Below, in pieces: positions 8,087 through 59,921 of a DNA stretch of 64,000 nt. The notes under the pieces were generated by a model. That model saw only the letters and a program-made list of their open reading frames with translations. It ran no database searches and was not told the origin of the DNA. The DNA is from an uncultured Verrucomicrobiae bacterium (GTDB lineage: Bacteria > Verrucomicrobiota > Verrucomicrobiia > Chthoniobacterales > JAFAMB01), in NCBI GenBank assembly GCA_963762565.1, contig CAVXLD010000003.1, positions 704,001-768,000 of the forward strand. Direction: 5' to 3'. The translations under genes and the position numbers were made by a program. Position 1 is the first letter of the stretch, and each line of letters starts with the position of its first letter.

Positions 8087-8344
8087 AAGAAGTATTGGTA
8101 TCTTGACGTCGGCCTCCCCGAATTACTCCATACCCTAGAGAGTAAAAATCGGCCCCGAGTGTACCAAGAATTCGACAAATGTCGATGCGTTAGGCGCTTT
8201 CATGGAATCTGCGCTCTATTTTCCGCACCTCTGGGTGATGTGGGTTGGGGGAATGATCGTTTGGGCGGGCTTCGTCTCGCAGGGACTCGAGGACCATCCC
8301 AAAGAGACTGGACTCAGCCCGAGGTCAAGAGACGTGTGTCTCTC

Positions 8345-9183
8345 GTCCCGAAGGGACTGAACGATGGTAGCCTGGCATGAAATGCCTGGGAAAGGCCCCA
8401 AACCGACCCGTCCCGTAGGGTACGGTATGATCGGGGCGGCTAGCCCCAGAGATATTTTTCGTCAAGATTGCCGCCGTGCCCCTTGAGAAAAGCTAGATAC
8501 TCTTCTTTAAACGTCCGGGTTCGGTGATGTTCGAGCTGCCGTTCGATGTAACAGACGGTTTCAGGTATTTGCGATATGCCAACGCTAAAGGCGCCGTACC
8601 CCTGCTGCCAGGCAAAGTTCCGCAAATGCGGATAGGTCTGATGTATCCAGCCTGACGAACCTGTTTTGATCAATTGAACTGCTTTTGCTATTCCCATGGT
8701 GGTCGGGAGCGCGAGGAGGAGGTGAACATGATCTGCGGCGCCGCCGATGCATTTTGGAACAATTCCATTCTGTTTGGCAATGCCACCTATGTAAGGCCAA
8801 AGACGTTCTCTAATATCGGGAGTCAAAACGGGAACGCGCTCTTTTGTGCTAAAGACACAATGGATGTGCAGGCACGAGAAGGTATTCGCCATAGAGCGTA
8901 TGATCCAAAAAATCGCTAATAGTGATAACACTAAGGAGTGATGTTATGTGTTACCTATCCGATTTCGCCAGGTGTCATCGCATGAGGGTGAGGAATGCGT
9001 GAGGGCATTGCGCTACGGGCAGGACCTCTATCATACCGTCCCTCTGGGACGGGTCGCATAGGGGGCTATTTTCCAGGCATTTCATGCCAGGCTACCATCG
9101 TTCGGTCCCTCCGGGACGGCTCGCATAGGGGGCCATTTTCCAGCATCTCATGCCAGGCTACTTTCATTCAGTCCCTACGGGAC
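8345..9183. mobile_element. IS200-like/RAYT element: transposase enclosed by inverted REP arms (family E)
   Basis: Left arm 8345-8431 (GTCCCGnAGGGAC, GTAGCCTGGCATGAAATGCCTGG). The reverse-complement right arm at 9030-9183 is partly duplicated. Confidence 0.75.
8440..8892 (-). CDS. tnpA: Y1 (HUH) tyrosine transposase, IS200/RAYT type
   Basis: HCVFSTKER, HUH motif DHVHLL, WQQGYGAFSV, catalytic YIERQ; 150 aa. Confidence 0.9.
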   Translation of the reverse strand: MANTFSCLHIHCVFSTKERVPVLTPDIRERLWPYIGGIAKQNGIVPKCIGGAADHVHLLLALPTTMGIAKAVQLIKTGSSGWIHQTYPHLRNFAWQQGYGAFSVGISQIPETVCYIERQLEHHRTRTFKEEYLAFLKGHGGNLDEKYLWG

Positions 9184-9194
9184 AAACCTACCCC

Positions 9195-11366: not shown

Positions 11367-11690
11367 GGCGCGAAGCGCTGGTAGATTTTAGCCTAGGCTG
11401 AGTCTGCGAGGCCTAGGTAGCCATTTCCCCCAAAGCGAGAGCGCTGAAGGCGAGGAAGAAACAGGGTTGCATATATAATAACTATTATCCTATATGTTAT
11501 GGTCATGCCCCAATCGCTCTCCTGCCTTCTTCTCCGGTTGCTTTCGACGAACGATACGTCTGGGATTGAACTCCGGTTCTTTCGCGCCTTCAGCGCTTCG
11601 TCGCTGGGGGGCCGTTACCTAGGCCTCGCAGACTCAGCCTAGGCTAAAATCTTGCAGCCCCGAAATGCTTCGGGGTAAACGCTTCGCGCC
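11367..11690. repeat. Repeat family F inverted doublet
   Basis: GGCGCGAAGCG..AGATTTTAGCCTAGGCTGAGTCTGCGAGGCCTAGGTA..GCGCTGAAGGCG and its reverse complement around an AT-rich spacer. Confidence 0.85.
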
Positions 11691-11761
11691 TAGTTCTCCG
11701 GAGTGGACAGTAACCGGAAGGCTCAACTAGTCCTCACTCACGCAGCGCTGCATTGACCCCT

Positions 11762-13240
11762 TCACAACAACATAAACGCCAGCCCCACGATAACGGTCGG
11801 AACAAGCGCGCCCAGGAATAGACCGAGAGGGGAAATTCCGGCTTCGCCAAAACGGGAAGCTAGAATGCTCTGGCCAGCCGGGTTGGGGGCATTGGCGATC
11901 ACGGTTAAACCGCCCCCGGTCACGGCGCCGGCCATTACGGCATAACGCGAAGAGTCAGGGAATCCAGGGACAAGGGTAGCCAGGTAGGTGATGGCGGCAT
12001 TGTCATTAAGTGCCGTGAGAGCGGTGGCGCAGATCATCAGCGGCCATTGGCTAAGCGATTTGAGAACGGGGCCGATCCACCAGGATTGACAGCCGCCATG
12101 GATGACTAGGGAGGCCAAGAAAAATCCCACTAACAGAGGAGGCCGCAAAGCGATGCCTTGCTGGTTATGCCGAGTGGCTGAGACAAAGGCGAGAAAGAAA
12201 AGGAAACCGAGAACCACTAGCACCGGATAATGCGCACTAATAACGGTCCAGACGAGGAACAACAGGTGAATCAGCGTGATAGACCAAGGCACTCTTCTTC
12301 GATCCTCTTCATCTCCAAATTCGCGCCGTTCTTGATTAAGCCGGCTGAACTCTTTTCGAAACGCGAGCCAATATAGAATATTCGAGATAATGATCGCGAT
12401 GACCGCTTTCCAGCCAAAGTTAGCCATCATGAAAGGCATGTCCCATTTCCAAGCGCTGGCGGCGAGTACCACGGGCGGAGCTGCGAAATGAGTTAGCGTG
12501 CCGCCGACCGAAATATTGACGAATAGCAATCCCAACGTGGCGTATTTCAACCGGCTGCTGGAATGCAAATTGTAAAAACGATGCCGGAGCAATAGGGCGC
12601 AAATGGTCATGGCTGCGGGCTCGGTGATAAAAGACCCCAAGATCGGTCCGATGGTTAGGATCGACATCCACCAGGCGGCAGGCGAACTTCGGCCGAGTTT
12701 AGCGACTTGCGAGATCGCGGTTTCCGCCGATCGCAGGATAGGTAACGATCCGGCGATCGCCATGATCACAACGACGAAGACCGGGTCCGCGACGTTGACA
12801 TGCCCGACGTAATCTACCATAGCGTCCCAGCCTTTGAATAGGATGATGGCGAGGAAAAGGGGAATCAACCAGATCCCGAAGACGGCTTCGATCTCTCCCA
12901 TGAAATGGTAGAACTGAGCCCAGAAAACCAGATGATCCCGTTTCCCTTCCGCAACTACCAGGTTCGGGTCAGCCTGTTCTTCCTCGAGCCGCAACAATCG
13001 ATGTTCAAAACTCCGTGAACGTTTCTGGAATTGGGCGGCCAAAAAAGTGTGCGTAATCGCCAATGCGAAAATGACGGTGGCGATCAGGTTAAGTGGATCA
13101 CTCTGAACCCGCCCCCAGAGCTGCGCCGGGATAAAAGTCACGTCGTCATCGTGATAGCTAGCCGGGTCCGCCGGGTATGCGCCGGCGCTGACTGATGCCG
13201 CGTGAAGGGAAGGCGACGCTAGGAGCAAAAAGCCGAGCAA
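11762..13240 (-). CDS. Putative Na+/H+ antiporter (DUF1504-like)
   Basis: Polytopic. LGSFITEPAAMT, NISVGGTLTHFAAPP, DNAAITYL, GGGLTVIANAPNPAG. Start uncertain (TTG 13240 or GTG 13408). Confidence 0.8.
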   Translation of the reverse strand: MLGFLLLASPSLHAASVSAGAYPADPASYHDDDVTFIPAQLWGRVQSDPLNLIATVIFALAITHTFLAAQFQKRSRSFEHRLLRLEEEQADPNLVVAEGKRDHLVFWAQFYHFMGEIEAVFGIWLIPLFLAIILFKGWDAMVDYVGHVNVADPVFVVVIMAIAGSLPILRSAETAISQVAKLGRSSPAAWWMSILTIGPILGSFITEPAAMTICALLLRHRFYNLHSSSRLKYATLGLLFVNISVGGTLTHFAAPPVVLAASAWKWDMPFMMANFGWKAVIAIIISNILYWLAFRKEFSRLNQERREFGDEEDRRRVPWSITLIHLLFLVWTVISAHYPVLVVLGFLFFLAFVSATRHNQQGIALRPPLLVGFFLASLVIHGGCQSWWIGPVLKSLSQWPLMICATALTALNDNAAITYLATLVPGFPDSSRYAVMAGAVTGGGLTVIANAPNPAGQSILASRFGEAGISPLGLFLGALVPTVIVGLAFMLL

Positions 13241-14010: not shown

Positions 14011-14265
14011 CAGAAATCTAGTAATCGCTGCGATCTAGAGACGCAAAGGAGAACCGCAGATTGACGCAGATGTACGCAGATAAGAATGGTCCGCGGAATA
14101 CATTTTAGCGGCGATCATGACGAGCGGGTCAGAGACATTATCGAGCGGCGTGTTCCAACTGATGAGGCCGGTAGTCGAAGCCCAGATCAAAATCTGCGTA
14201 AATCTGCGTCCATTTCACCCCGGAGAATTTCGGGGCTGCGGTTCGTTTTCTGTCTTCGCTTCGGC

Positions 14266-15097: not shown

Positions 15098-15403
15098 CTC
15101 GCTTAGGCTCGCCGCAGGAGCCATGAGAGGGCGTGTCGCAGGGGTCGCCACCCGTGGAGCGCTGCCTCGCTTGCGAGGCCGTTGGTGAGCAAGGGCGAAG
15201 ATTGGACACGACTTTCGTCTATCCGCGCACTTGACGTAGCCAGGCGGACCTAACGACACAGGGCATCGACGGCAATGGGTGATCCGCCCACGATTTTCCT
15301 TTGCTCACCACGGCCTCGCAAGCGAGGCAGCGCTCCACGGGGTGGCGCCTCCTCCTAGCTCCTAGATTCTAGCTCCTAACTCCTTCGGCGAGCCTAAGGC
15401 GAG
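15098..15403. repeat. Nested element: family G arms enclosing CTCCTAG heptamers and an A1 doublet
   Basis: CTCGCTTAGGCTCG ... A1 pair 15151-15341 ... (CTCCTAG)n ... CGAGCCTAAGGCGAG. Confidence 0.8.
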
Positions 15404-59855: not shown

Positions 59856-59921
59856 GTCCTATAAGTCCCATTGGTCCTATAGAGCCTGTCGCGCCGTAGG
59901 CTTGGCGAAGGCGGATCCCAT
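59856..59921. repeat. Repeat family H (9-mer array plus CGCCGTAGGCTTGGCGAAGGCGG)
   Basis: Direct copies at 61141-61202 and 62649-62713. Confidence 0.85.

Follow-up and report, generated by a model that had tools for sequence, protein, structure and literature searches.

A 22-nucleotide hairpin unit, filled or empty at matching repeat sites, in the genome of an uncultured Verrucomicrobiae bacterium

Very small repeated units of bacterial DNA have been described in several forms. The small dispersed repeats (SDRs) of heterocystous cyanobacteria, treated by Elhai and co-workers in 2008, are reportedly 21-27 nt long, form hairpins in some cases and lie nested inside one another as well as in other kinds of repeat; they are also said to be present or absent at matching sites and to have no known enzyme. 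Transposons of the IS200/IS605 group leave no target duplication, and IS608-type elements prefer the lagging-strand template. Insertion of IS200/IS605 elements is described as always taking place 3' of a tetra- or pentanucleotide (PMC5027513). REP sequences are regularly found inserted in other palindromes, of which empty copies also occur (PMC3733652), and REPINs are described as RAYT-dependent mobile DNA (PMC3116915). REPs down to 23 nt, the length given for those of S. maltophilia (PMC3733652, PMC3116915, PMC8266576), serve as substrates of RAYTs (PMC8266576). The insertion junctions of REP-like hairpins can seldom be seen, and how these hairpins spread is still unsettled for this reason.

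Here we describe a 22-nt hairpin unit with an exact junction (22 nt, after CAG, no duplication) that can be seen filled and empty in near strains and in a sister species. The window, that is, the whole stretch of 64,000 nt that was analysed, is C3:704001-768000 of a genome of 6.12 Mb in 15 contigs (G000), which was compared with five others of its genus (G001 to G005, six genomes in all) and with 25 genomes of other genera. The relatives of a protein encoded in the window come from soil Verrucomicrobiota MAGs, and G004 represents a sister species whose genes are about 76-83% identical to those of G000. The unit behaves as if it were mobile, and would then be among the smallest mobile DNA known. 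Our main reading, to which we give a probability of roughly 0.5, is that it is a single-hairpin, non-coding micro-element of the REP or small-dispersed-repeat kind, which would be moved in trans by an enzyme of the Y1/HUH type.

The first of two copies in the window (site 1) lies in a repeat that we call family F. The left arm of this element (11367-11419, plus strand) was recognised by inverted-repeat comparison and is empty, while the right arm (11616-11690, plus strand) carries the hairpin; together they form a 43-nt inverted repeat with 95% complementarity (11377-11419 and 11616-11658). The unit itself, CCCCGAAATGCTTCGGGGTAAA, occupies 11658-11679 on the plus strand and consists of a 7-bp stem, a 4-nt loop and the tail TAAA, with a predicted folding energy of -9.9 kcal/mol as single-stranded DNA. 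Directly 5' of it are the host bases GCAG (11654-11657, plus strand), so that the plus strand reads GGCTAAAATCTTGCAG, then the unit, then CGCTTCGCGCCTAG. On the minus strand the left arm reads GGCTAAAATCTACCAG followed at once by CGCTTCGCGCC, with nothing at the CCAG/CGCTTCGCGCC junction between 11377 and 11378. The junction at site 1 can be slid by one C, and its 22-mer is identical to those in two other family F arms of the genome.

Between the arms is a remnant of a RAYT (Y1 transposase) at 11505-11569 on the plus strand, found by tblastn with the RAYTs of the genome (E 5e-5 to 1.8e-4), in which the start region is fused to a C-terminal part ending in VAFDERYVWD-stop. In the orthologous family F copy on L162, a contig from a JGI metagenome, this remnant is longer by 134 nt and matches at E 3e-12; its two ends both resemble the RAYT at C9:102253 (74% over 23 residues at one, 53% over 43 residues with E 3e-12 at the other). 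These matches, in the window and in L162, show family F to be the flanking, REP-like part of a RAYT locus in decay, and the right arm to be a REP-like arm. The shorter remnant of the window next to the longer one of the near strain points to a stepwise decay of the locus.

The second copy (site 2) is located in an unrelated host, an element built of decamers (CGCAGAT). Its right arm (14192-14244, minus strand) has the order GAACCGCAG, unit, ATGGACGCAGATTTACGCAGAT, with the unit, CCCCGAAATTCTCCGGGGTGAA, at 14214-14235 on the minus strand. This variant ends with the tail TGAA and has an A-C mismatch on this strand, which is G-T on the other. Read on the minus strand, it is preceded by GCAG, and its junction cannot be slid at all. 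The empty left arm (14051-14081, plus strand) joins GAACCGCAG directly to ATTGACGCAGATGTACGCAGAT and reads GAACCGCAGATTGACGCAGATGTACGCAGAT. The units of the two sites differ at 3 of 22 positions, and that of site 2, with 25 of the 70 context-anchored units, is the most frequent 22-mer in the family. A preliminary description of the two sites had stated that both units are 22 nt long, follow GCAG and lack a flanking duplication, and that their removal restores the symmetry with the opposite arms; reading both sites, with their unit-free opposite arms, bears this out. It had also taken them for two independent insertions. Both are real, but they are not isolated events, being members of a family with about 60-75 copies in G000, always in the same orientation with respect to the host.

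The size of this family was assessed by pattern searches of the genome. A search of G000 for CCCCG-N6-10-CGGGG gave 85 matches, including 67 that have the 18-nt geometry, and a 27-nt pattern with up to three mismatches gave 59 matches against none for the reversed control. The recurrence of the 22-nt family is thus far beyond chance. Nearly all copies are found in three kinds of host, and the others in derivatives of these: in decamer arrays the unit sits between AACCGCAG and ATGGACGCAGATTTACGCAGAT, in nonamer arrays between ATATCCGCAGATTACGCAG and ATTACGCAGAT, and in family F arms between GGCTAAAATCTnnCAG and CGCTTCGCGCC. No copy was found in unique DNA, though CAG is everywhere.

The boundaries of the unit are identical in hosts that have no common flank beyond CAG. 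A filled decamer array has the form AACCGCAG, unit, ATGG, and an empty one reads AACCGCAGATGG. Between CGCAG and AT..CGCAGA there are 146 interruptions of 14-80 nt, of which 38 are exactly 22 nt long, and 37 of these 38 are the hairpin in one orientation; the ends are therefore constant, a point on which the preliminary description had made its proposal depend. Within arrays the unit stands behind either the first or the second array unit, and a strict definition yields 126 empty and 37 filled arrays. Family F arms are divided about equally, with approximately 15 filled and approximately 15 empty at the junction CAG/CGCTTCGCGC (as read from 153 rows), and among ten family F units collected without anchoring on CAG, eight follow CAG, one CAC and one CCG. 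The bases 5' of the unit are GCAG or NCAG. Because these are also present at empty sites, CAG belongs to the host sequence and not to the insert. Single host elements carry no unit, one or two: in some hosts both arms are filled (C3:81714/81818; G004 L026), and many others, including both elements of the window, have one or none.

That the unit is gained or lost as such can be seen from filled and empty alleles. In the metagenome scan for near-strain alleles, which covered site 1, the contig L162 was found to share this locus (the end of an antiporter gene, the family F element and the flanks), and at the place of the unit it reads GGCTAAAATCTTTCAG/CGCTTCGCGCCTAGTTCTCCGGAGTGGACAG, a gap of exactly 22 nt. 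Next to the gap there is one SNP 3 nt upstream, followed by 31 identical bases downstream. Logan contigs break at repeats, so that site 1 is spanned by a single contig and site 2 by none; the spanning contig (run X5, 341 nt on 11624-11986) differs by 22 gap letters and 20 other letters, the alignment giving the number and not the place of the gap letters. The ortholog of site 1 in G004 reads GGCTAAGATCTTACAG/CGCTTCGCGCCTAG, again with exactly 22 nt absent, and in G002 and G005 the family F element is absent at this position. By parsimony, the gain at site 1 falls in the G000 lineage. At site 2 the ortholog in G004 reads GAACCGCAGATTAACGCAGAT, without the unit, but this is not a clean 22-nt difference because G004 also has one decamer fewer.

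The comparison was also made in the reverse direction, starting from 54 hairpins in loci of G004 and G003, 27 of which have two-sided synteny in G000. Both immediate flanks were found for ten of the 27: four are exactly empty in G000 (sites 9, 16, 19 and 36 of this series), two are filled (sites 4 and 5), one has another insert (site 29) and three are ambiguous. In alignments of the same series, the gap at site 44 is exactly 22 nt long and that at site 8 is 23 nt long. At the series' own site 2, not to be confused with site 2 of the window, G000 has a different insert of 32 nt at the very same CGCAG point. The unit is a discrete block, filled or empty at matching sites, with orientation and junction fixed; empty alleles occur in strains, between species and in the reverse direction, and the unit is therefore one of discrete gain and loss. 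The absence of empty sites, which the preliminary description had named as fatal to its proposal, is thus not what is found.

Empty arrays and hairpins were counted in all six genomes of the genus. Matches to the empty-array pattern and to the hairpin pattern number 107 and 59 in G000, 0 and 0 in G001, 77 and 4 in G002, 63 and 10 in G003, 56 and 42 in G004, and 123 and 1 in G005, and the 25 genomes of other genera have 0-4 empty arrays and no hairpin. The arrays are thus older and wider in distribution than the hairpin, which has expanded in two lineages and whose abundance is lineage-specific. The consensus 22-mer is the same in G000 and G004 at non-orthologous sites, despite a gene identity of about 76-83%.

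The main rival account is that the hairpin is not mobile itself. It would then be one of the variable modules in a few mosaic families of repeats, and copying from one homologous member to another, by short-patch gene conversion or template switching, would both spread and erase it once one or two rare illegitimate transfers had carried it between families. Several observations agree with this. All copies are inside repeats, and the sequence variant tracks the host family, with an ATGC loop and TAAA tail in family F and an ATTC loop and TGAA tail in decamer arrays; the exact sharing of the site 1 22-mer among three family F arms is of the same kind. Two paralogous cassettes (C7:642380-642760 and 645250-645700) differ by the unit in their right-hand decamer array. 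A chimera at C5:58399-58469 (L166:100-170) combines the left flank of a decamer array, AACCGCAG, with a hairpin and right flank of the family F type. On the other hand, the flanking homology on one side of the unit amounts to just 8 nt (AACCGCAG) or 11 nt (CGCTTCGCGCC), which by our own estimate is short for ordinary homologous conversion. The SNP beside the window insert (TTGCAG) is absent from the filled family F arms among the 153 rows, and the exact boundaries recur in non-homologous hosts and behind different array units. The mix of spacer variants is alike in filled and empty arrays (ATGG, ATGA and ATTA in 16, 6 and 4 of 28 filled arrays versus 25, 36 and 20 of 100 empty ones), with some excess of ATGG in the filled, and the filled fraction is very different between congeners of similar array number. 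We regard copying within families as a possible but rather doubtful account of the whole pattern. Two details belong to these loci: the chimera joins exactly at the left end of its unit (C5:58421), and the C7 cassettes are composites of a CGCGAAT array, a decamer array with hairpin, a nonamer array and a further decamer array. Filled arrays are not clustered along the contigs (8 pairs of neighbouring filled arrays, where 7.6 are expected; p 0.51), and the 70 context-anchored units comprise 36 distinct 22-mers.

Returning to the micro-element moved in trans, the 22 nt would arrive, and perhaps leave, as a single exact block without target duplication. The best guess for the enzyme would be a RAYT-like or IS200-like TnpA, a protein of the Y1/HUH type acting on single-stranded DNA. 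Having recognised the hairpin in its folded form, such an enzyme would cleave and rejoin the DNA 3' of a short motif, in the manner of IS200/IS605. Fixed orientation, a junction 3' of a motif, lack of duplication, the hairpin and a Y1-rich genome all fit HUH/Y1 chemistry. Since only repeats are hit, recognition would have to involve more than CAG; the lack of copies in unique DNA, together with the tracking of the host by the sequence variant, likewise means that CAG alone is not the target and that much of the spread may be copying within families. A narrower version, which we put forward tentatively and judge rather less than probable, would make the unit a complete minimal HUH/Y1 substrate, with its 18-nt hairpin and 4-nt tail acting as both ends, that a chromosomal RAYT-like enzyme would excise and paste 3' of CAG in structured repeats.

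The genome holds 13 matches to Y1_Tnp, and five of them are RAYT-like, each with REP flanks of its own; its Y1 proteins also include a class of 352 aa. One is an intact RAYT-like Y1 gene of the window at 8440-8931 on the minus strand (Pfam Y1_Tnp, E 7.6e-26), 2.7 kb from site 1, and its flanks (8330-8440 and 9040-9185) contain their own repeats, namely GTCCC-N4-GGGAC hairpins and CCAGGCATTTCATGCCTGG, and not the 22-nt hairpin. The hairpin does not flank any of the 13 Y1_Tnp loci, and its nearest copy is 3.1 kb off. Among the six congeners, which are MAGs of 78-95% completeness, no Y1 class is exclusive to the hairpin-rich G000 and G004, and a TnpB/IS605 partner did not appear above cut-off. 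The strand of the units relative to local GC skew is 30:19, with 6 weak cases, and gives no clear bias over the 15 contigs, for which the origin is unmapped. The preliminary description had proposed an extremely small mobile unit nested in other repeats and had pointed to HUH enzymes, the genome's RAYTs in particular, as its movers. The former has held in that the unit is discrete and its gain or loss in unrelated hosts is precise, after CAG and without duplication. The latter fared less well, with no hairpin-flanked Y1_Tnp locus among the 13, no Y1 class that tracks abundance and no clear strand bias.

How closely does the unit then resemble the systems described above? With the REP/BIME mosaics as they are presented by Di Nocera et al. 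(2013), Bertels and Rainey (2011) and Corneloup et al. (2021) it has in common a short palindrome with many intergenic copies, here 59 pattern matches together with about 15 family F copies. Nesting in palindromic repeats of which empty copies exist, in a RAYT-rich genome, is also shared with REPs as described there, as is a tetranucleotide ending in AG on the 5' side of the stem. However, the REP tag (GTAG or CGTC) is part of the element, whereas the GCAG of the 22-nt unit is the host's. There is also no RAYT gene flanked by the hairpin, i.e., no REPtron, and the unit is mostly single rather than in doublets. Its junctions, G/C and A/A, differ from the CT/CA cleavage sites mapped for the three RAYTs in PMC8266576.

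Like IS200/IS605 elements such as IS608, as PMC5027513 describes them, the unit has a fixed orientation, a hairpin of the kind used for recognition and a position 3' of a short motif: 37 array copies stand in one orientation after CGCAG and 8 of 10 family F copies after CAG, without duplication. In contrast, the elements of that description are about 0.7-2 kb long, encode TnpA and have two subterminal hairpins, while the unit has 22 nt, one hairpin and no ORF. It also lacks a clear lagging-strand bias. The cyanobacterial SDRs, as they are reported, are similar in behaviour only; the phylum and the sequence are different, and the 22-nt unit has a strict CAG junction and an empty allele in a near strain. 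A MITE can be set aside, with 22 nt and no duplication here as opposed to the 70-300 bp, DDE terminal inverted repeats and target-site duplication of MITEs. In sum of behaviour, and not as an assignment to a class, the unit works like a REP or an SDR.

A different origin would be that a larger element was once excised from CAG sites and that the 22 nt are its ends, joined and left behind as a footprint. The palindromic unit does resemble joined inverted ends, and two loci have an insert of about 48 nt in the hairpin loop. Left halves of the form CAGCCCCGARA occur 78 times, however, 47 being complete at +22 and the other 31 being either chance matches or units with mutations, and no long element starts at any of these and ends in a right half; a search of the genome found no long element with the ends of the unit. 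Unit number, moreover, rises in two lineages, and we consider a footprint highly unlikely. The loop inserts (L164:121-200, C12:537420-537499; L165:141-220, C3:254640-254719) are common to both loci and made of CCCCGAA/TTCGGGG-type stems, so that they represent nested hairpins.

It could also be asked whether the hairpin is a site selected by the host, such as a transcription terminator, an RNA stability hairpin or a protein-binding site, for which the G+C-rich stem and the intergenic position of 45 of 55 copies (outside crude ORFs) would speak. Against this, near strains differ in whether they have the unit, the folding of the array variant is no better than that of its shuffles (z -0.24 and -0.35), and the orientation to flanking genes is even (14, 11, 11 and 9 over the four arrangements). 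Changes in the stem are mostly disruptive, with 2 compensatory and about 18 disruptive distinct variants; the variation is mostly decay and covariation is weak. Host function of this sort is therefore improbable. An intrinsic terminator in particular was rejected, with no T-run after the stem, no flag in the terminator scan and no preference in gene orientation, and a comparison with Rfam gave no family at the gathering score, the two sub-threshold matches being chance matches.

For the micro-element reading, the abundance of empty hosts and the exact junction offer defined oligonucleotide substrates for the Y1 enzymes of this genome. If moved by an enzyme, a unit of 22 nt would set a lower size limit for mobile DNA, and if it were indeed a minimal substrate, no smaller transposable DNA would have been described, and the spread of REP-like sequences could be studied in a clean system. 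More generally, the nesting of very small units is how the intergenic repeat mosaics of soil Verrucomicrobiota are put together.

Some further observations were made on these mosaics. At C3:873371-873434 (L167:122-185) there is a perfect palindrome of 64 nt with a 30-bp stem (-38.7 kcal/mol) and the hairpin at its tip, the left flank of a decamer array being duplicated and inverted around the unit as if by snap-back synthesis. At C1:180393-180449 (L163:294-350) a tRNA-like 5' half, GGTAGCTCAATGGTAGAGCAG, precedes a fully palindromic variant of the hairpin and a tRNA-Lys gene adjoins; a second TAGAGCAGCCCCGAAAGC is found about 420 nt away. A link of the unit to tRNA was considered and rejected, the hairpin-like sequence at C1:180418 lying beside and not within tRNA-Lys, with no second tRNA called there by ARAGORN. 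The window also contains a second mini-element of about 27-32 nt, of the CTGTCGCGCCGTAGGCTTGGCGAAGGCGG type with an internal GTAG (59886-59916, ~61167 and ~62678, plus strand), for which a regex search of the genome gives 153 matches. At least five different host repeats contain it at fixed points, among them the decamer arrays, where it lies at the CGCAG point in both orientations; it is also nested in tandem with itself. Finally, 15141-15185 and 15308-15345 of the window form an inverted pair of another very abundant repeat, of the GGCCTCGCAAGCGAGGCAGCGCTCCACGG type, which reaches a contig depth of about 250-1200 in four soil runs and has many matches in relatives.
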